Assembly (NCBI GenBank): GCA_963808625.1
Contig: CAWEHK010000040.1
Span: 1 to 33,898, forward strand
Source: an uncultured delta proteobacterium
GTDB taxonomy: Bacteria > Desulfobacterota > Syntrophobacteria > Syntrophobacterales > Syntrophobacteraceae
Reading direction: 5' to 3'
Length of the DNA: 33,898 nt
The notes beneath the pieces are model-generated. The model saw only the letters and a list, made by a program, of their open reading frames with translations, had not been told where the DNA came from and ran no database searches. Each line of letters begins with the position of its first letter. The stretch's first letter is position 1. Shown here piece after piece: positions 1,251 to 30,908 of this stretch. The translations under genes were made by a program, and so were the position numbers.

Positions 1251-2099
1251 CTAGAAGGCGGCTGAGATGCGCAGCCCGCCGAAAACATGCCAGTCCTCGC
1301 TATCCCAGGAGAGCAGGCTGATTTCCTGGCTGCCGCTGGGGCTGAGCGGAAAGGCATAGCCGATCCTGGGTGAGAGGGTGACGAATTTCCAGACCGGGAT
1401 ATTGAGAGCGGCAAGAGCCTGGCCTGACATAAAGCCGGAGAAGGCTTCCTCCGGATCGGTCGGATCAGGATAGGAACTGTTGTCGAGGGAGTTTAGGTAG
1501 AAGAAGCTCACCCCCAAATCCGTGCTCATCCCGTACCAGGGGAGCTTGAAGTTGCGCGAAAGATCGAACTGGATGGTCCAGCCGGGATTGTGCGACACCT
1601 CGCGGTAGCCGATGACCCCGACGTTCAACCAGGGAAGGGCATAGGAGAGACCGGCATAGACTTCGACGCTGTCGGGAATGTCGGCTTGCAGGGTGCGGTC
1701 AAGGCCGTAAGCATAGTATATGCAACCAACAGTTCCACTCAGCCCGCCATAGATCTCTCGAGAGTAGGTGGCAGTGAAGTCCGTCTCGTTCCATTTAGCC
1801 CCTACGGACGGGTTATTCTTATACTTGGAATCGGTGTCGAAATTCCCCCAGAGGTTGATTGAAAAACCCTTGTAACTAACAGTCATCGACGGCTGTATGA
1901 CCGCACTGTCCTGGCTGAGAGCAAAGCCCCGCCAAACGTACTGGCTGAGCACATCAGTGTAGCCGCTAAAGCTGGGCCGGTCTGCTTCTCCCTCAGCTTT
2001 AACCGGAGCGCTATAGAACATCACCAACAATAGTGCTATGGTAACCGATAACCCGATTCCTGCTCTTACCCAATGGTATTCTTTCATCGATCCAGCCAC
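1251..2099 (-). CDS. Outer-membrane beta-barrel protein, Gcw_chp/TorF-like putative porin
   Basis: Sec signal peptide ending PVKA, N-terminal DVLSQYVWRG...SAVIQPS motif, NETDFT, aromatic-rich strands and C-terminal beta-signal ending in F (GGLRISAAF). Confidence 0.75.
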   Translation of the reverse strand: MAGSMKEYHWVRAGIGLSVTIALLLVMFYSAPVKAEGEADRPSFSGYTDVLSQYVWRGFALSQDSAVIQPSMTVSYKGFSINLWGNFDTDSKYKNNPSVGAKWNETDFTATYSREIYGGLSGTVGCIYYAYGLDRTLQADIPDSVEVYAGLSYALPWLNVGVIGYREVSHNPGWTIQFDLSRNFKLPWYGMSTDLGVSFFYLNSLDNSSYPDPTDPEEAFSGFMSGQALAALNIPVWKFVTLSPRIGYAFPLSPSGSQEISLLSWDSEDWHVFGGLRISAAF

Positions 2100-2249: not shown

Positions 2250-4601
2250 TCACTTGGGGCTTCGGGTGTTGGGAACGGTCTTACCCACCATTTCCCTCAC
2301 AATGGTGAGAGTCTCCTCCGCTGCTTCCTTGGGCGGCAGGGCGGTATCGGCGATATTGCAGACCAGCCTCGTCACATCGTGGTCAACCTTCTTTTGCGTC
2401 CATACCTTGCCCTTGAGAACCGTGATATAGACTGAGTAGGAGTGATGCGTGGTGCCGGGCCGCTCCCCGATGATATGGAGAATGCCTTTGAACCGGTTGG
2501 GGTCTGAGTTTTCAAATAATAGCTCGCCGATCTCATACCCCGCCCGGACCCTGCCGCTGGTGACGACGATATTCGTTTCGTTCACCTTGGCGCCAGCGTC
2601 CGTGAGCAACCTCGTGATCTCCGCCAGATAAGGCGCAAGGTGGCCATCATCCATGATGGCCTTGGCGTTCAGGCCGTCGGAGATCACGATCTGGGCATTG
2701 GGAGGATTCGCTCCCCATGAGCTCCTGAGCTTTTCCAACGCGGCAATGGATTCCGGGCTCAGCTTTTCACCCGTTTCCGGATGAGTAATATAGTTCTCTC
2801 GATTGGTGGACAGCGTGCGGGCCAACAGCACATTGGGGATGGTCTTGATGAATTCGGGGTTGAGCTCAGTCCACAGCGATACCTTGGCATCGTCGTAGTA
2901 GGACTTGACTTTCGCTTCCAGTTGCGGATTGAGGTCCCAAAGATTCTTGCCGTGGCCGATGGCGAGATCAACGCCTCTTGCGTCAACTTCTTTTATTTTC
3001 TCGCGTCCTTCGGCATAGATCTCGTCCACGGAACGTTTATCACCCTTGGCCAGGCGATACTGGTAGTACACCCAAAGAGGATCGCCGAAGTGCTCGGTGT
3101 ACTGGTCGTTTTTGTCCACAATCCCGATCCGTTTATAAAAATCCCACATGGCATCATTGACCTTGAAACCGAATTTCTGCCGCAAACGGACGTGATCCTG
3201 AAACGCCGTCGTGAGATAGCTCAACATGGGGTCATTCTTGGTGGGCAGGCTCATCAAGTAAGCTGGATTGGCCGGCATGATCTGGTCCTGGCACCAATCC
3301 AGATCATCCAGAGTAACCGACATATGCAGCGTCGAGCAGATGTCGAGGCCAATCGTCAGGCCATGGAGCTTCCCCATGGCGATATCTTCCAGGCAGACTC
3401 GCACCAGTTGCTCCCGGGTCCTGAAAACCTCAGGCCCGATGAACCCGGCCACATCGTTCACATGCAGCCAGCCCCCTTTGGGCTGCACCTTGTTCAGCTC
3501 AACCTGCACCGCGCGGCTGAAACCGTACTTCCGGGACTCGAGCACCATCATATCGACGCCATGGGCCGCGCCATTGGTAAATTCGGAACCCTGACCGGTC
3601 TCAAAGTAAAGCCCGTATTGTTCCCCTTTCTTCAGTTGGGCATATTTCAGGATCTTCTCGACAGTGATATCAAACGTCTTGTTGCAGCTATCCGTTCCGG
3701 CAAGGCTCTGGAACATGGTTGCGACCGAGCCCGGGTGTCTTTTCGCAACCTCCGCCTGGACGTCGATGTGGGCGAGCACGCACCAGGGGATGGTGTCCTG
3801 GAGCTTGAAGGTATCGACCACATCCTTGAGCGCCATTTCCACCGTAGCGACGCTCGTTACCTGGCTGTCAACGGGGTTGGTTCCGATCACGATGTCGCCC
3901 GTGGCATAGGAAAACGCGTCAAGCACCTGCCAGACCACATCATCGGGATTGTCGGTGGGTGAATTGGGCTGGATGCGGGCGCCCAGGTAGCCTTTTGCTC
4001 CCAGGTTGGTGCCCGGCATCGGGTTGAATATCTTTTGATCAATCGTGATCAACTCTTCATTAGTCATCAGCTTGGGCACGCACCCGATGGTGTCGCTGGT
4101 GAGGCCAAACATGATGCCCTTTATTTCCGCCTCGGGCTTGGTCAGCAGAAATTCCTTCAACTGTCCCATGGTCCAGTCTTTGATCTTGTCGTACTGGGCC
4201 TGGTCAGTGCTCTGCCAGATCAGCTTCTGCAAGTCGTCCACCAGCAGGGGATGCTCATAGAGGTCTTTGATTTTCGTGTTTGCCAGAAGGGTCCGAGCAT
4301 TCTGCCGGGTCGCTTCATCAATGGCGCCCACCCCAATGGTCAGGTCGCCCTCCTTGAAGGCATTCGAGGCACCGATCACTTGCTGATAGAGGGCCTGATC
4401 AAAACCACCTTTAACTCGGGTGACATACGCGAAGACGTCTTCTCCCGGCTTTGCCTCCTTGATCGCAATGGCCTCAGCAGCGGAAGCCGTCTTCGAAGCA
4501 AGCGTAACACCCGCAAGGGCGACACCGGCAAGTCCCATGATTCCAAGGAATTGTCGCCGGTATATTCCTTCGTATCCATTCGATGACCTGGCTTTATCCA
4601 T
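2250..4601 (-). CDS. eutBC: Fused ethanolamine ammonia-lyase large+small subunit (EutB-EutC) with a Tat signal peptide
   Basis: 783 aa. EutB motifs: ARIQPN, VIGTNP, LYFETGQGS, VNDVAGFIGPE, DPMLSYLTT. EutC motifs: QIVISDGL, GRVRAGYEIGE, IIGERPG, CNI. N-terminus has YRRQFLG, an h-region and an ASA cleavage site. Confidence 0.9.
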   Translation of the reverse strand: MDKARSSNGYEGIYRRQFLGIMGLAGVALAGVTLASKTASAAEAIAIKEAKPGEDVFAYVTRVKGGFDQALYQQVIGASNAFKEGDLTIGVGAIDEATRQNARTLLANTKIKDLYEHPLLVDDLQKLIWQSTDQAQYDKIKDWTMGQLKEFLLTKPEAEIKGIMFGLTSDTIGCVPKLMTNEELITIDQKIFNPMPGTNLGAKGYLGARIQPNSPTDNPDDVVWQVLDAFSYATGDIVIGTNPVDSQVTSVATVEMALKDVVDTFKLQDTIPWCVLAHIDVQAEVAKRHPGSVATMFQSLAGTDSCNKTFDITVEKILKYAQLKKGEQYGLYFETGQGSEFTNGAAHGVDMMVLESRKYGFSRAVQVELNKVQPKGGWLHVNDVAGFIGPEVFRTREQLVRVCLEDIAMGKLHGLTIGLDICSTLHMSVTLDDLDWCQDQIMPANPAYLMSLPTKNDPMLSYLTTAFQDHVRLRQKFGFKVNDAMWDFYKRIGIVDKNDQYTEHFGDPLWVYYQYRLAKGDKRSVDEIYAEGREKIKEVDARGVDLAIGHGKNLWDLNPQLEAKVKSYYDDAKVSLWTELNPEFIKTIPNVLLARTLSTNRENYITHPETGEKLSPESIAALEKLRSSWGANPPNAQIVISDGLNAKAIMDDGHLAPYLAEITRLLTDAGAKVNETNIVVTSGRVRAGYEIGELLFENSDPNRFKGILHIIGERPGTTHHSYSVYITVLKGKVWTQKKVDHDVTRLVCNIADTALPPKEAAEETLTIVREMVGKTVPNTRSPK

Positions 4602-4648
4602 GGCTCCATCCCCCGTGAATTATTGTTCTCAAAAAACAAGACCGTTTC

Positions 4649-4670
4649 AAATGTGACATTCGTAACAAAG
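4649..4670. promoter_or_regulatory. Possible CRP/FNR-family-like operator upstream of eutBC
   Basis: TGTGA-CATTCG-TAACA (4652-4667) is one mismatch from TGTGA-N6-TCACA and lies ~50 bp upstream of the eutBC start. Confidence 0.3.
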
Positions 4671-5348: not shown

Positions 5349-5756
5349 CCATGGGGATGCGCGCCGTGTTTACGCTGCTGATGGTCAAGCAGTTGCTTAT
5401 CAGGGGGCGTGAGCCGTTGCAACGTATTGCCGGCGCGGTGGCGATCTACCTGCTGCTTGGACTCATCTGGGCGCGCCTGTATCAGGTCGTGGAACTGGTG
5501 AGCCCCGGCGCTTTCCGGGTTCCCGAGGGTGAGAGTGTCAATGGTGCCAGCCTGACCTACTTCAGCTTCGTCACCCTGGCGACGCTCGGCTACGGTGATA
5601 TTTCGCCGGTCAACATCGTGGCGCGCGATCTGGCCGTCCTCGAAGCGATCATGGGCCAACTCTATCTGGTGATTCTCATTTCCCGGCTGGTGACCGAAGG
5701 GGTGGAGAAAGCGGGAATGGGACAGGACGGTTGAAAACCTGCGGATCTGCCACCGC
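5349..5756 (+). pseudogene. 5'-truncated duplicate of the K+ channel gene (repeat copy B; ORF 5351-5734)
   Basis: Protein is nearly identical to residues ~103-229 of 379-1068 and lacks the N-terminal TM segments. Confidence 0.85.
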
Positions 5757-8873: not shown

Positions 8874-10034
8874 GTGACGGACATGAATACAGCCACGGAA
8901 TCCATCCTGCTGGTTGACGATCAACCGGCCAACCTACAGGTGCTTTTTCAGACGTTGAAGAGCGTCGGGAGCAATCTGCTCGTTGCCAAAAACGGCGAGA
9001 CGGCCTTGGCGATTGCCCAAAAAGCGCGTCCGGATCTCATTCTGCTCGACATCATGATGCCGGGAATCGACGGCTTTGAGGTATGCCGGCGCTTGAAAGC
9101 AGATCCAGCCACGGAAAAAATTCCGGTCATCTTCCTCTCGTCGCTGGACGAAACGGCGGATAAGGTCCGGGGGCTCCAGTTGGGTGCGGTCGACTACGTT
9201 TCCAAGCCCTTCCAACCCGAAGAAGTCATTGCGCGGGTCAACACCCACCTGACCATCCACCGGCTGAACCTCGAGGTGCAGCATCAGAGAGATCAACTGG
9301 AGCACGAACTGCAGGTCGTTTCGCAACTCCAGCGGAATCTTCTGCCTGAACGGCTGCCGCATATCGATGGCTTGAAACTGGCCGTGCATTATGAAACCAG
9401 CCGCTACGCCGGCGGCGATTACTACGATATCGTTGCCCTGCCGAACGGCCGTTGGGGTTTTCTGGTGGCCGATGCGGAAGGCCACAGTGCGCCGGCCGCC
9501 GTGATGATGGCCATGACCTGCGCCCTGTTTCGTTCGGGTTCAACCGGTGAGGAAGAAGCGGACCGCATGCTTACCTACATCAATGAAAACCTCTGCAAAG
9601 TGAACAAGGAAAGCTTTGTCACCGCCATTTATGCCGAATACGACCCCCGCCGCAGGACCTTCCGCATCTCCCGCGCGGGGCATCCCCTGCCCATCCTTTA
9701 CCGGTCTCCTGAAAGAAAAGCGCTCGAACTATCCTGCCCGGGCGTCTTTGCGATGGGATTGGAGGCTTTTCCCGAAGTTCCGGTAACCGAAGTAGCACTC
9801 GAGCCAGGGGACTGCCTGCTTCTTTACACGGATGGGGTGAGTGAGCTCTTCAACGAAGCAGGAGAACCCTACGGGGAAAAGCGCCTGCTGCGCCAAATCG
9901 AAGCGGCCTCCACGGATGACCCTGAATTAATGCTTAAAGGGATTGTCGAAGATTTTGCGGGCTTCGCGGGCGGTCGCCCAGCCGACGACGATCAGGTGAT
10001 GCTGATGATTGTGAGCGAGAGGACACTTCCGTGA
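8874..10034 (+). CDS. Response regulator receiver + PP2C/SpoIIE (RsbU-like) phosphatase
   Basis: [25 protein letters not shown]2C: GGDYYD, ADAEGH, LYTDGV, DDQ. Confidence 0.92.
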
Positions 10035-13000
10035 AACGAACCCAAAGGCCCAAATCTACGAAAGACGTCGTCAACAGACAGGATGCTCGAGATAAATCAA
10101 ATCCAGATGAGAGCACAGCCTATTCCCTGGCTGATCTTCTCGATTTCGAGCAGTTGAGCCAGATCCTGGAAAATTTCTGCGATGCCGTTGGAATTGCCTC
10201 GACCATCTTTGACCTGAAAGGCAACGTATTGGCTTCCGCACGCTGGCGGAGAATCTGCAGCGATTTCCATCGGGTTGATCCCCGAACTCGTGCTCGCTGC
10301 ATGGAAAGCACCTCTGAACTCGCGGCCGATCTTCAGGAAGGCAAGCCTTTCTCGATTTACCGCTGCAAGAACGGCATGACTGACGCTGCCTCGCCCATCG
10401 TAATCGAGGGCAAACACATGGCCAATGTCTGTGTAGGGCAGTTCTTCCTGACCGAACCCGATAGGGGCTTTTTCCAAAAACAGGCGGAGGAATTCGGCTT
10501 CGATACGGCAGGTTACTTACAAGCTCTCGATCAGGTTCCCATTTTTCGCGAGGAAGAACTGCCCGCTCTTCTCGGTTTTCTAACGGGCTTCACCCAGCTG
10601 GTGACATTCCTAAGCCTTGAGCGGATTAGAGCCAGAGAAGCAGAAAAGGTTAGTGAGCGGCGCGCTGAGGATGCGGAAGAGGCCAAAGCAGAACTGACGC
10701 GTTACAAAGCGCATCTGGAAAACATTGTGGAGGAGCGAACGGCTGAACTCAGAGATTCTGAGGGGCGCATAAGCCTCATCCTCCATTCCGTGGGCGAAGG
10801 CATCTTTGGGGTGGATGCCGAAGGCCGGGTCAGTTTCATCAATGAAGCTGCTCAACAGATGCTCGGATACGTTTTCGACGAAATGCTCGGGCAGCCGGTG
10901 CACGCCTTGATCCACCACTCGCATGCCGACGGGACGCCATACCCCGGGGAGGACTGCCCAATGTTCCATTCCTTCTCCCGGGGCGAGACTACCTCCCGTG
11001 AGGACGAGGTGCTCTGGCGCAAGGACGGTTCTTCTTTTTACGCGTCCTATACAACTGTGCCCATGCGCATGGGCGATACGATCACGGGCGCGGTCGTGGT
11101 GTTCCGCGATATCACCCGACGCAAGAAAATGGAGCAGGAACTCATCGTGGCGCGGGACCGGGCGGAGGCCGCCACGCGAGCCAAGGGCGACTTCCTGGCC
11201 AACATGAGCCACGAGATTCGCACGCCCATGAACGCCATCCTGGGCATGACCCACCTGGCACTTAAGACCGATCTGACACCGAAGCAGAGAGACTACCTCA
11301 ACAAGATCCACGTTTCAGCGAACTCCCTCCTCGGCATCATCAACGACATCCTGGACTTTTCCAAGATCGAGGCAGGGAAGCTGGATATGGAATCGGTACC
11401 TTTCGACCTGGATGAAGTCATGGACAACCTGGCCACTCTGGTGAGCGTCAAAGCCCAGGAAAAGGAAGGGATCGAAGTGCTGTTCAGCACGGCTTCGAAT
11501 GTGCCCCGGTCTCTCGTGGGAGACCCCTTGAGACTGGGCCAGGTGCTGATCAACCTGGCCAACAACGCCATCAAGTTCACGGAACACGGCGAAATCGTGG
11601 TTTCAACCGAAGTGGTCAACCTGGGGGAAGAGACGACGGAAGTCAAGTTCGCGGTGAGGGACACGGGCATTGGTCTCACCGAGGAACAGCGGGCAAGGCT
11701 ATTTGAGGCCTTCAGCCAGGCCGACACCTCAACTACCCGGAAGTACGGAGGGACGGGGCTGGGGCTTACGATAAGCAAACGCGTGGTGGAAATGATGGGC
11801 GGCAAGATCTGGGTTGAGAGCACGACGGGTGTCGGGAGCACATTTTCATTTACGGCTGTTTTCGGTCTCGGCCGGGAACAGGGCGGCGCCCAACACCTTC
11901 CTCCGCCCGATCTGAGAGGCATCAGAGCGCTGGTGGTGGACGACAACCTGACCGCGCGGGAAATTTTCCGGGAGATGCTGGAGTCCTTCTCCTTCGAAGT
12001 GACCCTGGCGGCTTCGGGTGAAGAGGGGCTGGCGGAAATCACGAAATCGCTTGACGGCCGTCCCTATGACCTGGTGATCATGGATTGGAAGATGCCGGGG
12101 ATGGACGGCATCAAGGCCTCGCAGCGGATTAAGCAGGATTCGAGGCTGACTCGCGTCCCGGCCATTATTCTGGTGACGGCCTACGGCCGGGAAGAAATCA
12201 TGCAGCAGGCCGAGGCGGCCGGGCTGGACGGCTTCCTCATCAAACCGGTGAGCCCGTCGGTGATGTTCGATACCATCATGCAGGCGTTTGGCAAGGACGC
12301 CCCGAGGGAGTCGCGGCTGGGCGTTGACAAGGATCAGGCGGCGGTGGCGCTGAAGGGCCTCGCGGGCGCCCGGGTGCTGGTTGTGGAAGACAACGAGATC
12401 AACCAGCAGGTGGCGATGGAGATCCTCGCCGGTGCGGGTCTCGATGTTTCGCTCGCCAACAACGGCCAGGAAGGCGTGAATGCGGTGCTGGCGAACCGCT
12501 ACGACGCGGTTTTGATGGATGTGCAAATGCCGGTGATGGACGGTTACACCGCCACCCGCCACATCCGTCGCGACCCGCGCTTCAAAGATCTGCCCATCAT
12601 CGCCATGACCGCCCATGCCATGACGGGCGATGAGGAGAAGAGCATGGCGGCCGGCATGAACGATCACGTCACCAAACCCATCGACCCGGCGCAGCTCCTG
12701 GCAACGCTGGCAAAATGGATCGCTCCTCGGGAGCTATCTCCCGCTGAGGATCTGCACCCGGCGACGGCCCATGACAAGACCACCACCGAGCATCAGCCAG
12801 GCTCGCCAGCGCCAGCCCGGGCACGCGCCCCGACCAGCACCTCTACCAGGAACGAGCAACCATTAACCAGGAACTCCACGCCGGGAAGAGCAGCCGTTTC
12901 CGGATGCTCTTCCCGGCTTCGATCTGGCCGAAGGGCTGCAGCGCCTCCAGGGCAACAAGGCGCTCTACCAGAAACTGCTGTTGAGTTTCACCACCGGCTA

Positions 13001-13523
13001 TGAGCAGGCGGCCGATGACCTGCGCAAGGTGCTGGACGCAAACGATTATGGCCGGGCACACAGCCTGGTTCACAGCATCAAGGGAGTCGCGGGCAATTTG
13101 GCGGCGCGGGAGCTCCACGCCGCGGCATTGGGGCTGGAAAAGCTGCTTAAACACGCGGATGAGAAGAATCCGCCGCCACCGGAAAGCATCAATGAAGCAC
13201 TTACCGTCTTCGAGGAACAACTGGAGCAGGCGCTGCAAGCCGTCCGCTCCCTGCCGCTCGCAGAGGGCGGGCAAAGCCCAGCGCCACCAATTGAGCCGGT
13301 CGCAAACCTGCCGTCCGAAGTGGCCAAAGAGGCCGCCGACCGCCTGCGGGAAGCTGCCGACATGGGGGATGTGACCAGCCTCATGGCCATTGCCGATGAA
13401 TTCTTGTCGCGCTCCGCGGAATTTGCCTCCTACCATGCAAAAATTGCCCAGCTGGCCGACGACTTCGACCTCGACGGCATCCTCGCCTTGGTCAATGATC
13501 TGCTGAAAGAGCAAGGAACCTGA
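10031..13523 (+). CDS. Hybrid sensor histidine kinase PocR-PAS-HisKA-HATPase-REC-REC-Hpt (frameshift near 12885)
   Basis: PocR-like N-terminus ([25 protein letters not shown]), [30 protein letters not shown] and two receivers. The Hpt part ([13 protein letters not shown]...[10 protein letters not shown]) continues in the +1 frame to 13523. Confidence 0.88.
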
Positions 13524-14168: not shown

Positions 14169-15353
14169 ATGAAAATTACACAATTGGATATTGAGGGTTT
14201 CCGTTCTCTTCGAAAGGTAAGCTGGTTTCCTGGCGACCTCAATGTGATTATTGGTCCTAATGGGACTGGTAAATCAAATTTGCTACGTTTTATGGAGTTA
14301 ATTTCCATATCGTCGCAAGGCAGATTGGGGAAGTATATTCAATCGTTAGGTGGAATGGACCCGATAGTTTGGGATGGGACCGCTGCTTCCATAAAGTTTG
14401 TTCTTGAATCAACACCTGAAGGTGGGGATTTAGGCCCTGAACATTACGAGCTTGAACTGGCACGGCTTGGTCCTGGGAGTTCATATAAGGTTGAAAAAGA
14501 ACTTTTAATAAACTCTCATAAATTAAGGAGGGGGATTGAAAAGAAACCGTTTAAATTTTTAGAACGTTTTTCAAAGACTGCTGTTATCTTTGATGAAAAG
14601 GAACGGACCTTTACCACACCGGAAGAGTTTATCTCAGACGAGGAGAGCCTTCTTTCAATAACATCTGGACCATTCATTAATAATCACTTCATTCCACCAT
14701 TCCAAAGGGGACTGGCTTCTATCGCTGTTTATCATGATCTACATACCAATAAGGATGCCTCTGTTCGTCAACCTACTATTTCTCGCATGGAAAAGCGTGT
14801 TGATCCTGACGGACAAAATCTTATATCGGTCATGCACACGCTTTACACAGGCGATCGTGATTTCAAGAAAGACATAAATTCTGCCATGCAGGCTGCATTT
14901 GGCGATGATTTTGAAGAGTTAGTTTTCCCTCCTGCGTCTGACCAGAGAATTCAAATGCGGATTCGTTGGAAATCACTGAAACGAGAGCAATCGGCTGCTG
15001 AACTTTCAGATGGAACGCTCCGGTTTTTATTTTTGTTAACGGTCTTGGCAAGCCCATCACCAGCCCCAATTATCGCTATTGATGAACCCGAAACTGGTCT
15101 CCATCCATCAATGCTTCCTCTGGTTGCGGAATATGCAGTTGACGCGGCCACTAGATCTCAAGTCATTCTTACTACGCATTCTCCTCAATTCCTGGATGCT
15201 TTCGTAGGGAATAGGCCTACAACGACGGTTGCAAAATGGGAAAATGGTGAAACCATATTGCAAACATTAAAAGGGGGAGAGCTTGACTATTGGCTGAAAG
15301 AATATTCGCTGGGGTCTCTTTTTAGATCGGGTGAATTGGAGCAAATGGGATGA
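14169..15353 (+). CDS. ABC-type AAA ATPase (AAA_21/AAA_15-like), integron cassette gene
   Basis: Walker A GPNGTGKS, signature LSDGTLR, Walker B IAIDEPE, H-loop TTHSP. Visibly AT-rich. Confidence 0.9.
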   Translation: MKITQLDIEGFRSLRKVSWFPGDLNVIIGPNGTGKSNLLRFMELISISSQGRLGKYIQSLGGMDPIVWDGTAASIKFVLESTPEGGDLGPEHYELELARLGPGSSYKVEKELLINSHKLRRGIEKKPFKFLERFSKTAVIFDEKERTFTTPEEFISDEESLLSITSGPFINNHFIPPFQRGLASIAVYHDLHTNKDASVRQPTISRMEKRVDPDGQNLISVMHTLYTGDRDFKKDINSAMQAAFGDDFEELVFPPASDQRIQMRIRWKSLKREQSAAELSDGTLRFLFLLTVLASPSPAPIIAIDEPETGLHPSMLPLVAEYAVDAATRSQVILTTHSPQFLDAFVGNRPTTTVAKWENGETILQTLKGGELDYWLKEYSLGSLFRSGELEQMG

Positions 15354-16000
15354 GATTTATTCTTTTCGTCGAAGGTTATACAGAAGACAAGACATTGCCA
15401 AAATTCTTGAAAAAATGGCTTGATCCAAAATTAAATAACCCTATTGGGATCAGAACCGTTCGCTTTGAAGGATGGCCTGAGCTAGTAAAAGACGCTCCTC
15501 TAAAAGCAAAAATGCATCTGAACAGTCCATATAAAGACGATATTATTGCTGTGATTTCATTATTGGACCTTTACGGTCCGACCTTTTATCCTAATCATTT
15601 AGAAGGATGCAATGAACGTTACGAATGGGCAAAACAGTATATCGAAGAGAAGGTAAATCATCCAAAATTTTTTCAATTTTTCGCAGTTCATGAAGTTGAG
15701 GCATGGCTTCTGAGTCAACCAGATCTCTTTCCCTTGAAAGTCAAAAATGCATTCGCCAATAATATTCAAAAGCCAGAAACGGTAAACTTTGATGAGCCGC
15801 CGGCAAAATTATTGGAACGTCTTTATCCTTTGCATATAAATCGGTCATATAAAAAGGTGGTGAATGGTAAAGAACTTTTTGGAAAACTCGATCCGAACAT
15901 CGCATATCAAAAATGCCCAAAACTGAAAGAACTTCTGGATAAGATGTTGGAGTTGGCCCAACAAAAAAATGCAGCGGACGGCGAATCCGTGGGAGCGTGA
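15350..16000 (+). CDS. DUF4276-like (TOPRIM-related) protein, partner of the ATPase
   Basis: FVEGYTE, LLDLYG, HEVEAWLL, PETVNFDEPP, YKKVVNG, KCPKL. ATGA overlap with the ATPase gene. Confidence 0.8.
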   Translation: MRFILFVEGYTEDKTLPKFLKKWLDPKLNNPIGIRTVRFEGWPELVKDAPLKAKMHLNSPYKDDIIAVISLLDLYGPTFYPNHLEGCNERYEWAKQYIEEKVNHPKFFQFFAVHEVEAWLLSQPDLFPLKVKNAFANNIQKPETVNFDEPPAKLLERLYPLHINRSYKKVVNGKELFGKLDPNIAYQKCPKLKELLDKMLELAQQKNAADGESVGA

Positions 16001-16064
16001 GAGTAAGTGGTGTCCTGCTCACACTTGCCGTTACTTTGCGCCGCCGCTGATTTTGGTGTTAGCC
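15956..16064 (+). other. attC site 1 (109 bp)
   Basis: R'' GCCCAAC-AAAAA-AATGCAGCGGACGGCG ... CGCCGCCGCTGATT-TTGGT-GTTAGCC R'. The arms are complementary with two unpaired bases in the left arm. Confidence 0.85.
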
Positions 16065-16103
16065 CCACTGCTCGCGGACTGATGCCCGTTCACAGGATGT
16101 TTT

Positions 16104-16340
16104 ATGTAAGCTTTTGAGATCATCAGTGAGATAACGGGCATCGAGACCATCGCTACCGAGAGCTCGATTGATGAAATCTCACGTCTGCGAAAACATTACG
16201 GTCAGGGCCGCTGACGAAAACTCAAAGGTGTTGCTATGATTCGGCTTAGGAGCGGTCGAGTTCGCAAAGCCGAGCTTCACTGGTATGAAGCACACGGCCT
16301 TGGAAGAAAAGAGATAAAACGGAAACGCTATTTGGAATAA
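16104..16340 (+). pseudogene. Small conserved hypothetical gene (putative toxin-like first gene of cassette 2) with two nonsense codons
   Basis: Reads M*AFEIISEITGIETIA...HYGQGR*RKLKG...AELHWYEAHGLGRKEIKRKRYLE, with stops TAA at 16107-16109 and TGA at 16212-16214. Confidence 0.7.
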
Positions 16341-19782: not shown

Positions 19783-20025
19783 ATTACTTTATCAACATGA
19801 GGCTCCGCACCGGGAAGAAGGTAATGAGCGCCAGGGTCACCAGGAGGATGGCAATGAACGGAAGGGAGGTATCGTAAAAATAAATCACCGACTTCTCGAA
19901 TCGCAGGCTGGCGATGAGGAGGTCCATCCCGATCGGCGGCAGGGAGTAGCCGATGTGGAGATTCGTGAGAAAAATGATGCCCAGATGCAGCAGGTTGACA
20001 TCATAGCTTTTGGCAATTGGAACAA
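19783..20025 (-). pseudogene. Duplicated 3' fragment of the TRAP large permease gene
   Basis: Near-identical to 24423-24665 (VPIAKSYDVNLLHLGIIFLTNL...SLMLIK). Confidence 0.88.
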
Positions 20026-20761: not shown

Positions 20762-20849
20762 CCCCAACCAATCATTCGAGCCGCCGCCGAACCACGCCCG
20801 GAGTATTGCCTCAAGTCCTCGGCCGGCGCTGCTCAATTCTGCGATAGCC
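20762..20849 (+). other. attC site 3 (88 bp, R' box mutated)
   Basis: CCCCAAC-CAATC-ATTCGAGCCGCCGCCG ... CGGCGCTGCTCAAT-TCTGC-GATAGCC. It is followed by the same sequence that follows GTTAGCC at 16058. Confidence 0.75.
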
Positions 20850-21082
20850 CCACTGCTCGAGGACTGATGCCCGTTCACAGGATGTTTTATGGAAGCTTTT
20901 GAGATCATCAGTGAGATAACAGACATCGAGACCATCGCTCTCGAGAGATCGATTGATGAGGTCTCACATCTGCGAAAACATTACGATCAGGATCGCTGAC
21001 GAAGACTCAAAGGTTGTTGCTATGATTCGGCTTAGGAGCGGTCGAGTTCGCAAAGCCGAGCGTCACTTGTATGAAGCACACG
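20843..21082 (+). pseudogene. Truncated second copy of cassette 2
   Basis: Aligns with 16058-16297. ATG at 20889 (MEAFEIISEIT), the same in-frame TGA at 20997-20999, and truncation after YEAH. Confidence 0.85.
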
Positions 21083-24231: not shown

Positions 24232-24423
24232 AAGACTCTACGCTCCTGCCTTAATCCATCCTCATGTCAGGCCCCACTGGCCCGTTTCCTCAGGCCGTCC
24301 TCGCTTGCCAAACTTGGGCAGACGACCTCATCTTGAATGGATTATCTCCTATCAGATTCCGTCCCGTAAGTCATCATCCCCGAGGAAACATCGATCAGTA
24401 ATGCCTTGCTAAACAGAAGGCGA

Positions 24424-25688
24424 TTATTTTATCAGCATGAGGCTCAGCGCCGGGAAGAAGGTAATAAACGCCAGGGTCACCAGGAGGATGGCAATGAACG
24501 GAAGGGAGGCATAGTACAAATAAATCACCGACTTCTCGAATCGCAGGCTGGCGATGAGGAGGTCCATCCCGATCGGCGGCAGGGAGTAGCCGATCTGGAG
24601 GTTCGTGAGAAAAATGATGCCCAGATGCAGCAGGTTGACATCATAGCTTTTGGCAATCGGCACAATGAGCGGCACGACAATAACCAGGGCTGAAAAGATG
24701 TTGAGCACACAGCCCACCCCGAGCAGGAACAGGTTCAAGATAAAGAGAAAAGCGTACTTGCTTTCGACATGGGTGCGCATGAAGCTCAGGATCTTGTTGG
24801 GGACCTGCTGGTCGATGAGGAAGCTGTTGAAGGCGAGCGATGCACCCAGAATGACCACAATGGCGCCCACCATAATCACGGTTTTCATAATCGTGGAGGG
24901 CAATTCCGCCAGCTTCACCTCCCGATGAATCACCATCTCGACAAGCAGTACGTAAATGGCCGTAATTGCGGCAGCTTCACTCAACGCCAGGTAGCCGCTG
25001 AAGATCCCGCCCAGGACCACCACCGGAAGAAGGACTTCCCAGACTGCTTCGCGCAGGGCGGCGAGGACTTCGCGGAAGGCGAACTGGGCATGAGCGCCCG
25101 TGGTGCCGGAACGAATGCCCTGAACCATGCTGTAAAGGGAGAGCAGGACCAGCATGAGCGCTCCCGGCACAACCCCTGCCACGAAAAGGTCTGCGGTATT
25201 GACGTCGGCAACCATGGCATAAATGATCAGCGGGAGGCTGGGGGGAAGAGCAGTCCGAGGCTCCCGCAGGTGGTGAGGAGCCCGAGGGAGAATTTCTCCG
25301 GGTACTTGTCGCCAATGAGGGCGGGTAACATCAACCCTCCGAGGGCGACGATGGTAATTCCCGAAGCACCGGTAAGGGCCGTGAAAAAAGCACAGGTAAT
25401 CAGCGAGACAATGGCCATCCCTCCGGGCGTTCTTCCCATGAGGGCGGTGGAAAGCCTGACCAGCCTCGCGCTGGCCTGGCTCTCCCCAAGCACATAGCCG
25501 GCGAAGGCAAAGAGCAGGAGGGCTATCAGGATGGGACTGGAAGCCAGACGGTACATTTCGATGATCACTGCCGCAAGGTCAATGCCGAGAGCTTGAAAAC
25601 ACAGGAGTGCGGCAGCGGAGATCACCAGGAACAGGGGCGCCCCGGAAAATGCCACGATAATCAGGCCGGCGGTCAGCAGCAGAGTCAT
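24424..25688 (-). CDS. dctM: TRAP transporter large permease (frameshift in the G6 run near 25240)
   Basis: FTALTGASG, GSLGLLFPP/SLPLIIY, LFVAGVVPG, PPIGMDL. Confidence 0.9.
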
Positions 25689-25899
25689 TCGTTCAAGTCA
25701 CCTCAGGTCGCAACTTTCATCAACCATCAACCATCAACCGGTTCTAAAGTCCTTCGTTCAGGTCACCTCAGGTCGCAACTTTCATCAACCATCAACCATC
25801 AACCGGTTCTAAAGTCCTTCGTTCAAGTCACCTCAGGTCGCAGCTTTCATCAACCATCAACCATCAACCATCAACCGGTTCTAAAGTCCTTCGTTCAGG
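25688..25899. repeat. Nested tandem repeat: units of 65, 65 and 72 bp plus a partial unit, each containing (CATCAAC)3-4
   Basis: Units start at 25688, 25753, 25818 and 25890 and are almost identical. Confidence 0.95.
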
Positions 25900-26396
25900 C
25901 CACCATGGTCCGCGCTCAGTTCGGCAACGAGCTGATATCCAAATCTCAGCGTCATGATCGCGAAACTCAGGGGAAAGACGGCTTCCAACCACCAGTTGGG
26001 AATGTCAGCGAACGCCATGGTGCCCGAGCTCATTTCGCTCTGTAAAAAGGTGATCGAGGCATACAGGAGGATGGCCGAAACCGCCGTGGAAAAGAGATTG
26101 CTGATGATGCCAAGGACCCGGGCACTCGCCGCGGGCAGCAACTTGGGAAGGAGGTCAATCTGGATGTGCTTGTTTTCCGCGGCAGCCCGCGCGGCCCCGA
26201 GCAAACTGACCCAGAGCACGATTTGCCGCAGCAGGGAGTCACCCCAGATGAGACCGGTTGAAAAAAAATTCCGTAGAACAATCTGGAGAAATGAAAAGAC
26301 GACAAGGAAGATAACCAGCGAAGCGATCAACCACTTTTCGAGCGCTCCGACCCATCGGCTCACCTGCGGTATGCTGTTGTGAAAGTGAGACTTCAT
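25881..26396 (-). CDS. dctQ: TRAP transporter small permease
   Basis: Four TM segments; QIVLRNFF, VLWVSLLGA, HIQIDL. Confidence 0.92.
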   Translation of the reverse strand: MKSHFHNSIPQVSRWVGALEKWLIASLVIFLVVFSFLQIVLRNFFSTGLIWGDSLLRQIVLWVSLLGAARAAAENKHIQIDLLPKLLPAASARVLGIISNLFSTAVSAILLYASITFLQSEMSSGTMAFADIPNWWLEAVFPLSFAIMTLRFGYQLVAELSADHGGLNEGL

Positions 26397-29415: not shown

Positions 29416-30687
29416 TTAGCTGAGCCGGCTGATTTTCACCGCGCACAGCTTCCCGCACATGGTGCAGGCTTCGCGATCCTGAGTCACCTGAAGCCGCCGC
29501 TTGACCAGGACAGGATCAAGCGCCTCGGTAATCATCCCGTCCCAATCCAATTTCTGGCGGCATTCGGACATCCGGCGGTCGGCGTCCATGGCGCCGGGAA
29601 GTCCCTTGGCAATGTCTGCCACATGGCCCGCGATCCGCGCCGCCATAACCCCGGCATAGACATCCTCGGCATTGGGCAGGCCGAGGTGTTCGGCGGGAGT
29701 TACATAGCAGATATAGTCAGCGCCCGCAGCACCGGCGATGGCGCCGCCGATGGCGGCGACGATATGATCGTAGCCTGCGGCAATATCCGTCGGCAAGGGT
29801 CCCAGGATATAAAAAGGGGCCCCGTCACAAAGCTTTTTTTGCAGGAGAATGTTTGCCTGGATCTGGGGCAGCGGCACATGCCCCGGCCCTTCAATCATGA
29901 CCTGGACGCCCCGGTTGCGAGCCCGCCTGGCCAATTCTCCCAAAATCATCAGTTCCTGCAACTGCGCGCCATCGGTGGCGTCGCAGATGGTTCCCGGACG
30001 AAAACCATCGCCCAGGCTCAGGGTAACGTCATACTTGTGGGCAATCTCGAGGAGATCGTCAAAATATTCATAGAGCGGATTTTCCTTACCGTTTTTGCGC
30101 ATCCAGTGCATGTGGATGGAACCCCCACGACTCACACAGGGCATGATCCGTTCGTAGGATTCGAGCCGTTTTACCGCGACCTGGGTGACGCCGCAGTGGA
30201 CCGTGATATAATCGAGCCCCTCGCGGCACTGTTTCTCGATGCTTCTCAGGAGCTGGTCCCCGTCCATTTCGTCCAGAGCCTGATGCCTTGCCATCATCTC
30301 GGTTGCCAGCGTATAAATGGGGACGGCCCCGACCGTTACCGGCGAGTGTTCGAGGAAAAACCGGCGAAACTCGGCCAGATCGCCCCCGGTGGAAAGATCC
30401 ATGATCGAGTCCGTCTTGGCATCCAGGGCCGCTTTGAGTTTTTCCGCTTCCATTTCCATGCTGCAGCATTCGCCACTCGTTCCCAAATTGGCATTTACCT
30501 TGGTTTTCAACCCCGACCAATAGCCCGGAGAATGGGAAAGGAATGGTTGCGATTCCTGGGCAGGACGGCCCGGCCCGCCGCAATCAAGTCCCGCAGTTCT
30601 TCGGCGCTAACCGGCTCGTCCCTTAACCGCTTCCCGCATCTCTTCCGTAACGATACCCGCTTTCGCAAAATCCAGTTGTGTAACCAT
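29416..30687 (-). CDS. thiC: Phosphomethylpyrimidine synthase (two apparent frameshifts near 30620 and 30511)
   Basis: [17 protein letters not shown] / ...AIGRG / [50 protein letters not shown] and C-terminal [12 protein letters not shown] riboswitch lies upstream. Confidence 0.92.
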
Positions 30688-30758
30688 AACATCCTCCACT
30701 TCGTGAGCTGGCGCGGGGAGCCTTGGCAATGGCTGTGAGCAACGTAGCCACTTGCCGG

Positions 30759-30789
30759 AAAATAAAAAAGGCCGTTTGGGAAAACGGCC
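30759..30789 (-). terminator. Intrinsic terminator (riboswitch expression platform)
   Basis: Minus strand GGCCGTTT-TCCC-AAACGGCC followed by a T-rich tract, between the aptamer and the thiC start. Confidence 0.8.
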
Positions 30790-30812
30790 ATCCGACAGCT
30801 ACCTTGTCGCGT

Positions 30813-30893
30813 GCCGATTCCTCCGCCAGTATTAATCTGGATCAGGTTCCAAGGGTTTGATCTCAGCCCTCATGAGGAGAGCACCCCTTCGGC
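30813..30893 (-). ncRNA. TPP riboswitch
   Basis: Minus strand GCCGAAGGGGTGC...GCTGAGATCAAACCCTTGGAACCTGATCCAGATTAATACTGGCGGAGGAATCGGC has the canonical TPP motifs and P1 GCCGA/TCGGC. Confidence 0.95.
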
Positions 30894-30908
30894 TATAGAA
30901 CCTTATTC

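Follow-up and report, generated by a model that had tools for sequence, protein, structure and literature searches.

A single-chain ethanolamine ammonia-lyase with a conserved export signal and a probable periplasmic location in Syntrophobacteraceae

A stretch of 33,898 nucleotides from an uncultured delta proteobacterium of the family Syntrophobacteraceae (contig CAWEHK010000040.1, positions 1 to 33,898; the whole stretch is referred to as the window) carries on its minus strand a fused eutBC gene, the product of which joins both subunits of ethanolamine ammonia-lyase (EAL) in one chain behind an N-terminal peptide of the twin-arginine translocation (Tat) type. Sequence comparison, structural modelling and a survey of related loci suggested that this product is probably a periplasmic single-chain adenosylcobalamin (AdoCbl)-dependent EAL, which would spare the cell a permease. 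In our judgement, export of the lyase is very likely and, given export, ethanolamine is likely to be its main substrate. We consider it a real feature, a variant of a known enzyme family with a probable new location. The gene and its parts are as follows.

2250..4601, minus strand: fused eutBC gene, encoding a 783-residue precursor of about 82.6 kDa once 41 residues are removed
4604..4614, minus strand: Shine-Dalgarno (SD)-like purine run before the ATG at 4601, with an anti-SD duplex energy of -8.6 kcal/mol
4479..4601, minus strand: Tat-type signal peptide, residues 1-41, with the twin-arginine (RR) codons at 4554-4559 and cleavage after A-S-A as predicted by eye
3093..4388, minus strand: EutB (alpha, TIM-barrel) domain, residues 72-503, with R209, Q211, N242, E334, D420, M450 and Y462
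2964..3092, minus strand: structured helical connector, residues 504-546, with helices at 508-518 and 525-541 (pLDDT > 90)
2283..2963, minus strand: EutC (beta) domain, residues 547-773, with R684-V685, G712-E713-R714-P715, S723 and Y725

A single chain with the fold and contact positions of EAL

The open reading frame (ORF) starts with ATG and has no internal stops. Pfam models recognised EutB over residues 72-503 (E 1.2e-144, 482.8 bits against a cut-off of 25) and EutC over residues 547-773 (E 1.3e-32, 113.5 bits against 25.8), and the NCBIfam EutB model was also passed (642.7, cut-off 554), in agreement with the first-pass annotation, which had described positions 2250-4601 as one EutB-EutC frame without giving a strand. 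The G+C content at third codon positions of the gene (GC3, 0.71) was similar to that of the adjoining genes, and the lyase was the sole EutB/EutC match in the host genome (85% complete). An assembly artefact was ruled out as the source of the fusion, because 78 of 80 related loci from GTDB contained a single fused frame; of the other two, L022 was frameshifted and L073 was cut at a contig end.

An AlphaFold2 model built on a 77-row alignment (mean pLDDT 91, pTM 0.89) left residues 1-41 unstructured (pLDDT < 50), was confident from about residue 45 and exceeded 90 from residue 51. Its top Foldseek match was E. coli EutB (3abo_A; TM-score 0.91 over the target, root-mean-square deviation 1.9, 30% identity), followed by Listeria EutB and then by EutC chains with TM-scores of 0.73-0.77 (3abo_D, 0.77 over the target), and the proposed modelling against the E. 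coli enzyme was thus favourable for both halves of the chain.

Alignment placed E. coli EutB R160/Q162, N193, E287, D362, M392 and Y404 at R209, Q211, N242, E334, D420, M450 and Y462 of the lyase, and the motifs that had been singled out beforehand as holding the substrate-binding R/Q, N, E and D residues were those aligned with R160/Q162, N193, E287 and D362. We take all of these positions to have substrate roles; only R160 is named in the title of a reference. Conservation was assessed in the 47 of 120 near homologues (see below) that were aligned. R209, Q211, N242, E334, D420 and Y462 were kept in 47/47, as were the equivalents of E. coli alpha S247, F258, Y285, V326, F329, I330 and L402 and of beta R206, V207, G227-P230 (including E228 and R229), S239 and Y241, among which alpha S247, F258, Y285, F329 and I330 and beta R206, V207, E228, R229 and Y241 presumably contact cobalamin. 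The M392 equivalent was Met in the window protein and Ile in 39 of the 47, and the alignment of the lyase to positions 253-260 of the E. coli beta subunit was ambiguous. One chain holds both EAL subunits, with the EAL fold and conserved positions for substrate and cobalamin contacts.

The canonical EutB and EutC of E. coli, Salmonella and Listeria (PDB 3abo, 5ysr and 2qez) have both folds and these contacts in common with the lyase, which differs from them in being a single ORF rather than separate subunits, in its helical connector and export-type peptide, and in having no linked eutA, eat/eutH or shell genes. Fused genes have been reported in Pelobacter carbinolicus, a species that includes strains growing on ethanolamine, both EAL genes of which are fused (eutBC1/eutBC2, Pcar_0491 and Pcar_0467; PMC3543383). 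By its description in the available part of that paper, the fused enzyme is treated as cytoplasmic and fed by uptake proteins and no signal peptide is named, and the word "signal" has 0 occurrences in the six supplements. The locus of a Pelobacter sp. (L080) encodes a protein 62% identical to the lyase, in a similar neighbourhood and with a peptide of the general secretory (Sec) type. The fusion is already published and fused members are classed as EAL; what is added here is that near-identical enzymes have exchanged Tat and Sec signals, and that the same order contains a fused sister type without a signal.

The N-terminal signal and its conservation

The N-terminus reads as the first-pass annotation had quoted it and is of the Tat type, with two deviations in the flanks of the motif: RR at residues 15-16 (RRQFL, 15-19) is followed by an uncharged stretch rich in Gly, Ala, Leu and Val, a Lys and the site A-S-A/A, and the highest 19-residue hydropathy of the whole protein (1.94) falls at residues 18-36. 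The motif matches the TatP pattern RR.[FGAVML][LITMVF], and the Gly-rich hydrophobic region (h-region), the A-x-A site and the length of 23-60 residues given in the available part of the same source (PMC6085387) are all present. A rule of our own, combining the RR motif, the h-region and the A-x-A site, was matched by 103 of the 120 homologues but by none of 8 EutB proteins of the canonical type. As controls for chance, the predicted genes of the host gave 24 matches in 3338 (0.72%), and internal windows gave 25 in 10532 (0.24%). The signal peptide of the lyase family is not a product of chance.

Translation from a start that would drop the RR was ruled out by the anti-SD energies, which favour upstream starts across the loci. 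At the next Met downstream of the RR in the window gene the duplex energy was -2.4 kcal/mol, as against -8.6 at ATG 4601, and values of -4 kcal/mol or lower were found for the start upstream of the RR in 67 of 70 loci and for the downstream start in 14 of 63.

A protein search gave 5811 matches at E <= 0.001, and the best 120 of these (75-93% identity) were used, all of which contained both Pfam domains. The proposed conservation of the RR motif stood for 104 of the 120, which carried the twin-arginine pattern; a further 10 had a Sec-type peptide and 6 started inside the h-region, these two classes being assigned by eye. One late-start protein, P0073, matched locus L013, the DNA of which encodes the RR upstream and points to a late gene call. 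The locus set comprised the 80 GTDB loci and the window (81), 77 of them with complete N-termini (76 GTDB loci and the window). Since a strict twin-arginine expression missed 5 of the 81, a relaxed form was used for the 77, giving 70 loci with RR, 6 with a Sec-type peptide and one, L058, with no signal.

The loci were distributed over Syntrophobacterales, Syntrophales, Desulfobacterales, Geobacterales, many rhizobia and one metagenome-assembled genome (MAG) of Verrucomicrobia. The RR codons differed by lineage (AGA, AGG or CGN) and the motif was retained from Thermodesulfobacteriota to rhizobia and Verrucomicrobia; judged from these comparisons, the signal is evidently under selection in the family. 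The nearest named related locus belonged to a Syntrophobacteraceae MAG (94% identity), and replicons of Sinorhizobium meliloti and S. fredii carried the gene with 72-76% identity, annotated as EutB or unannotated. Distant relatives with RR peptides were also found, some with a lipobox-like Cys, as seen by eye. In the same wider clade we observed fused EutBC proteins with eukaryote-like (transit-peptide-like) N-termini (P0122, P0126, P0173 and related rows), one of which had a long extra N-terminal domain.

In a tree of the signal-free part of the protein (55 rows, with P0076 left out) Tat and Sec forms were intermixed, with at least 7 label changes. The Sec rows P0007 and P0009/L074 were nested in the 100/100 clade of the window protein itself, and P0104 (Sec) was sister to P0059 (Tat) with a support of 100/99; the gene coordinates of L074 are those of the match in the same-genus genome G082. 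A single clade of Sec forms was rejected (p-AU 3.5e-57), in a test on 25 rows picked after the first tree had been seen, using LG+G4 with no mixture. Some Sec-type members were 85-88% identical to the window protein, one of them in the same genus, and P0007 was 9% identical to it within residues 1-45, against 83-95% in the remaining blocks. Because Tat and Sec forms interleave among close relatives, the conserved feature appears to be an export signal and not a single route. Sec is described as carrying unfolded chains, so the Sec-type lyases would have to fold and bind their cofactor outside, and the occurrence of such peptides in near homologues suggests that cofactor loading in the cytoplasm is not obligatory for the family.

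The idea of the first-pass annotation that Tat served out of necessity for a folded, cofactor-loaded protein could therefore not be maintained, given Sec peptides in 10 of 120 homologues and 6 of 77 complete loci. Its proposal of an exported single-chain EAL was supported by the conserved signal, the upstream start and the tatABC genes of the host, in which tatC (C12:5545-6321) is preceded by a TatA/B-family gene and two further TatA-family matches were found. TatC was present in 48 of the 50 genomes examined behind the loci (50 of the 80), genomes that are related to one another and partly incomplete.

Within the order of the host, EutB was detected in 21 of 96 genomes. Five had the signal-bearing fusion, one more had it with the 5' end cut, eight had an extension-less fusion, five had the canonical type and two had fragments (L091, L096 and L106-L109 being classed by score and frame length only), and two full-length EutB types occurred together in 0 of the 96. 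The signal-less fused type of these eight genomes (L098-L105; P0140 and P0143) is a single chain like the lyase of the window, with about 690-700 residues and 37-39% identity to it; unlike that lyase it has no N-terminal extension and is presumably cytoplasmic. In a wider tree rooted on canonical-type EutB (87 rows, quick method, long branches flagged) the signal-less fused proteins branched outside the signal-bearing group, with relatives beside it, and signal-less rows, some with eukaryote-like N-termini, were also placed inside that group. Canonical-type proteins had been fused separately, without signals. Because this order also contains a fused sister type that has no signal, the fusion does not depend on export, and the claim that the subunits were fused so that one signal could export both was not upheld. 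On these sequences, fusion first and export later is the simplest reading. Tat is reportedly able to carry unfused partner subunits, going by the title of Rodrigue 1999, and fusion may be needed for the Sec route only.

Of the 50 genomes, 47 had the fused type only and 3 had canonical EutB too; 3 had two fused copies. The second fused copies in L126 (3466-11705) and L127 had Sec-type peptides and adjoined genes for aldehyde:ferredoxin oxidoreductase (AOR), and in L126 the lyase was followed by complex-I-like (Ech-like) membrane subunits.

Proposed course of the reaction and alternative readings

The window chain would fold in the cytoplasm and may take up AdoCbl there; the host has an adenosyltransferase and CobS. 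It would then be translocated by Tat as a unit of about 83 kDa and cleaved after residue 41, while for the Sec-type relatives both folding and AdoCbl binding would have to take place in the periplasm. Ethanolamine would enter through the outer-membrane barrel encoded next to the lyase and be split in the periplasm into acetaldehyde and ammonium. The uncharged acetaldehyde could diffuse into the cell and be oxidised by AOR, of which the host has four uninterrupted matches, or be reduced by alcohol dehydrogenase. Cofactor damaged during catalysis might be dealt with, without ATP, by spontaneous exchange or by protein turnover. The host also has periplasmic binding proteins of the BtuF/siderophore class.

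The likeliest gain is that no inner-membrane permease would be needed for a protonated cation that crosses poorly, rather than a shielding of the cytoplasm. According to the available part of PMC5821096, ethanolamine diffuses at neutral pH and, when protonated at acidic pH, needs Eat or EutH, so that a bypass of the permease is a plausible gain. Acid resistance through ammonia release was rejected, because no proton is consumed when ethanolammonium is converted to ammonium.

A Pfam scan of the 26 ORFs of the window and a tblastn search revealed neither eutA nor an eat permease nor a shell gene there, as the first-pass annotation had reported, and the linkage of shell genes, eutA and permease to eutBC that marks a Eut microcompartment was absent. 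None of the 80 fused loci, 56 of which had long flanks, contained a homologue of eat or eutA, while canonical loci had eat in 3 of 7 and eutA in 4 of 7; a eutA homologue was likewise not found at the eight signal-less fused loci. In the host genome (85% complete) EutH was not found, the Eat match lay below the model cut-off with none above it, and the "EutA" match is actually FtsA. Eat above the cut-off was detected in 1 of the 50 genomes and shell genes in 4. Each of five rhizobial genomes (G004, G006, G023, G038 and G050) contained a pair of EutA-like genes, mostly separated by 25-28 kb and located on different contigs from the fused lyase; no canonical eutB accompanied them.

The absence of a permease was rejected as proof of export, because the signal-less fused forms also lack one. 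The missing eutA and shell genes are uninformative as to location because the EAL of Acinetobacter baumannii works without either. As described in the available part of PMC9426561, this EutBC is at the cell membrane, needs no microcompartment or EutA and has no predicted EutC N-terminal signal; it is made of two subunits, unlike the single-chain lyase of the window, and its export is not proposed. By analogy, it makes a periplasmic enzyme without a reactivase seem feasible.

Several observations weigh against a periplasmic EAL. Compared with the consensus S/T-R-R-x-F-L-K, the RR motif of the window is non-canonical twice (Y at -1, G for K at +5). The lyase missed the NCBIfam EutC equivalog (85.6 against 230), the characterised EALs are only about 30% (EutB) and 23-26% (EutC) identical to it, and D383 takes the place of E. 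coli T325, beside V326, in 47/47 near homologues. Among the loci, L058 is complete yet without a signal, a frameshift interrupts L022, and a homologue of the barrel gene that follows the lyase adjoins it in only 8 of 81 loci, the window counted. Canonical EAL forms an oligomer that contains six active sites, and an oligomer of that size is too large for Tat if assembled before export. ATP-driven reactivation is impossible in the periplasm, and EutA-like genes were present in only 6 of the 50 genomes. An ammonium transporter (Amt) was not found in the host genome at its 85% completeness, and the signal-less fused forms were also without Eat, neighbouring or genome-wide (0 of 8).

Part of this would fit an exported protein that acts on another vicinal amino alcohol or has a periplasmic role in binding or scavenging cobalamin, a reading that we regard as rather improbable. 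In the available part of their paper, Aklujkar et al. suggest that the P. carbinolicus copies differ in substrate (PMC3543383). The identity of about 30% to characterised enzymes, the EutC score below the NCBIfam cut-off, the clade-wide D383 beside the pocket and the changes around E. coli beta 253-260 point the same way, together with the canonical EutB also present in 3 of 50 genomes, the two fused copies in 3 genomes and the BtuF/FecCD-like ABC genes adjoining Pelobacter-type loci. However, every substrate-contact equivalent tested is kept (with roles that, except for R160, are those we presume), three EAL types replace each other across the order, and aldehyde-consuming enzymes are the commonest neighbours. 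Still less probable is a protein that is not translocated, its peptide being a membrane tether that escapes cleavage or the remnant of a signal, and the enzyme working on the cytoplasmic face. This reading would agree with the synthesis of AdoCbl in the cytoplasm (adenosyltransferase and CobS in the host), with the problems of oligomer size and reactivation, with the non-canonical RR flanks and with the remnant RR peptides that some cytoplasmic enzymes presumably carry, and the Acinetobacter EutBC stays at the membrane without shell or EutA (PMC9426561, available part); but a tether needs neither an invariant RR with switching codons nor an A-x-A site, and it does not account for repeated swaps to short Sec-type peptides or for a motif kept from Thermodesulfobacteriota to rhizobia and Verrucomicrobia.

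It is hardly credible that the peptide directs the enzyme into a host shell. The host does have a microcompartment locus (G000:C19:22675-37477, L083) with diol dehydratase, reactivase, adenosyltransferase, aldehyde dehydrogenase and Fe-alcohol dehydrogenase, and canonical EutC carries an N-terminal encapsulation peptide. Yet that locus is one of diol dehydratase and its reactivase, 46 of the 50 genomes have no shell gene, the peptide is uniformly uncharged after the RR and not amphipathic, and L058, the only locus that lacks the peptide, comes from a genome with many shell genes. A further alternative concerns only the purpose and is compatible with export: the cell would shield its cytoplasm from acetaldehyde and make use of the ammonium. 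The rarity of shell genes (4 of 50 genomes) and the view that microcompartments confine acetaldehyde speak for it, and rhizobia could take nitrogen from ethanolamine. We consider it unlikely, since acetaldehyde is volatile and crosses membranes, the recurrent neighbours are cytoplasmic alcohol dehydrogenase, AOR and Pta/AckA, the host genome yielded no ammonium transporter, and shell-free cytoplasmic EALs are viable. This purpose was the one suggested in the first-pass annotation, as an alternative to a microcompartment, and it is not supported: the host has a diol-type microcompartment and relatives of the lyase adjoin cytoplasmic aldehyde-consuming enzymes. A periplasmic EAL that spares a permease remains our preferred reading.

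Gene neighbourhood, other features of the window and significance

The gene that follows the lyase is a probable operon partner.

1251..2087, minus strand: TorF/Gcw_chp-like outer-membrane beta-barrel gene, 162 bases after the lyase stop and in the same direction (Pfam Gcw_chp, E 2e-7)

Its product has an N-terminal signal and a C-terminal Phe, and its model consists mostly of beta strands, with outer-membrane barrels as the best structural matches. Across the 81 loci the recurrent neighbours of the fused lyase were Zn-alcohol dehydrogenase (26), phosphoketolase (13), Pta with acetate kinase (4-5) and AOR (4), aldehyde-consuming enzymes being the commonest. At the Pelobacter-type loci L055, L079 and L080, which encode Sec-type lyases, the lyase is followed by a membrane protein of unknown function and an ABC ATPase, and L055 and L079 additionally have BtuF/FecCD-like and MoxR/DUF58/VWA genes; all of these genes are candidates for cofactor delivery.

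No riboswitch was found at the lyase gene with Rfam, the sole match in the window being a thiamine pyrophosphate (TPP) element at 30801-30898, and scans for promoters and terminators remained at chance level. A shared low-oxygen regulon received no support, because FNR, CRP-like and sigma-54 boxes were not enriched upstream across 76 loci. A palindrome at 4652-4667, 66 bases before the lyase start, resembles the CRP/HcpR family, by what we take to be its consensus, and was not seen upstream in the 75 other loci.

Other features of the window were noted. The lyase and barrel genes lie between two copies of an Ion_trans_2 channel-like gene (379-1068 and 5349-5754), which share 92% identity over 406 bases; the copy at 5349-5754 seemingly lacks its 5' part. 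A response regulator-SpoIIE phosphatase and a hybrid kinase with a PocR sensor (8874-13003) lie 4-8 kb from the lyase, with no conserved linkage seen; PocR domains are tied to diol and ethanolamine sensing. A low-GC pair at 14169-16000 (GC3 0.35), encoding an AAA_21 ATPase and a DUF4276 protein, has the appearance of an acquired module of the defence or toxin-antitoxin type. Between 13759 and 24665 there are several direct and inverted repeats of 150-260 bases, 85-95% identical (for example 19783-20025 with 24423-24665, and 16039-16296 with 20824-21082); positions 25683-25904 hold a short tandem repeat. Both dctM (24424-25215 and 25227-25688) and thiC (29416-30510 and 30507-30791, behind the TPP riboswitch) are split in two, by frameshifts or assembly errors.

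No paper on an exported EAL was found in the literature searched, which left subscription journals largely outside. The respiratory reductive dehalogenases (PceA/RdhA) are, as we understand them, corrinoid enzymes exported by Tat, as proposed here for the lyase; unlike it they are presumably redox enzymes of unrelated fold, with no adenosyl ligand or 5'-deoxyadenosyl radical chemistry. The family is easily overlooked, as its members are simply labelled EutB in databases and the arginines are missed by at least one gene call, which begins after them. AdoCbl radical enzymes are regarded as residents of the cytoplasm or of microcompartments that depend on adenosylation in the cytoplasm and often on reactivation driven by ATP. 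An exported clade raises the questions of how AdoCbl gets to the periplasm and stays intact there, and by what means the inactivated enzyme recovers. We lean slightly towards a widespread clade of AdoCbl radical enzymes outside the cytoplasm in which Tat and Sec are interchangeable, and in which the enzyme may fold and bind AdoCbl in the periplasm and shed damaged cofactor without ATP or a reactivase. The near-identical Tat and Sec versions constitute a natural experiment on cofactor loading before export, for which S. meliloti and S. fredii, as carriers of the gene, offer tractable hosts; if the proposal is true, a periplasmic AdoCbl pool would be used directly for catalysis.

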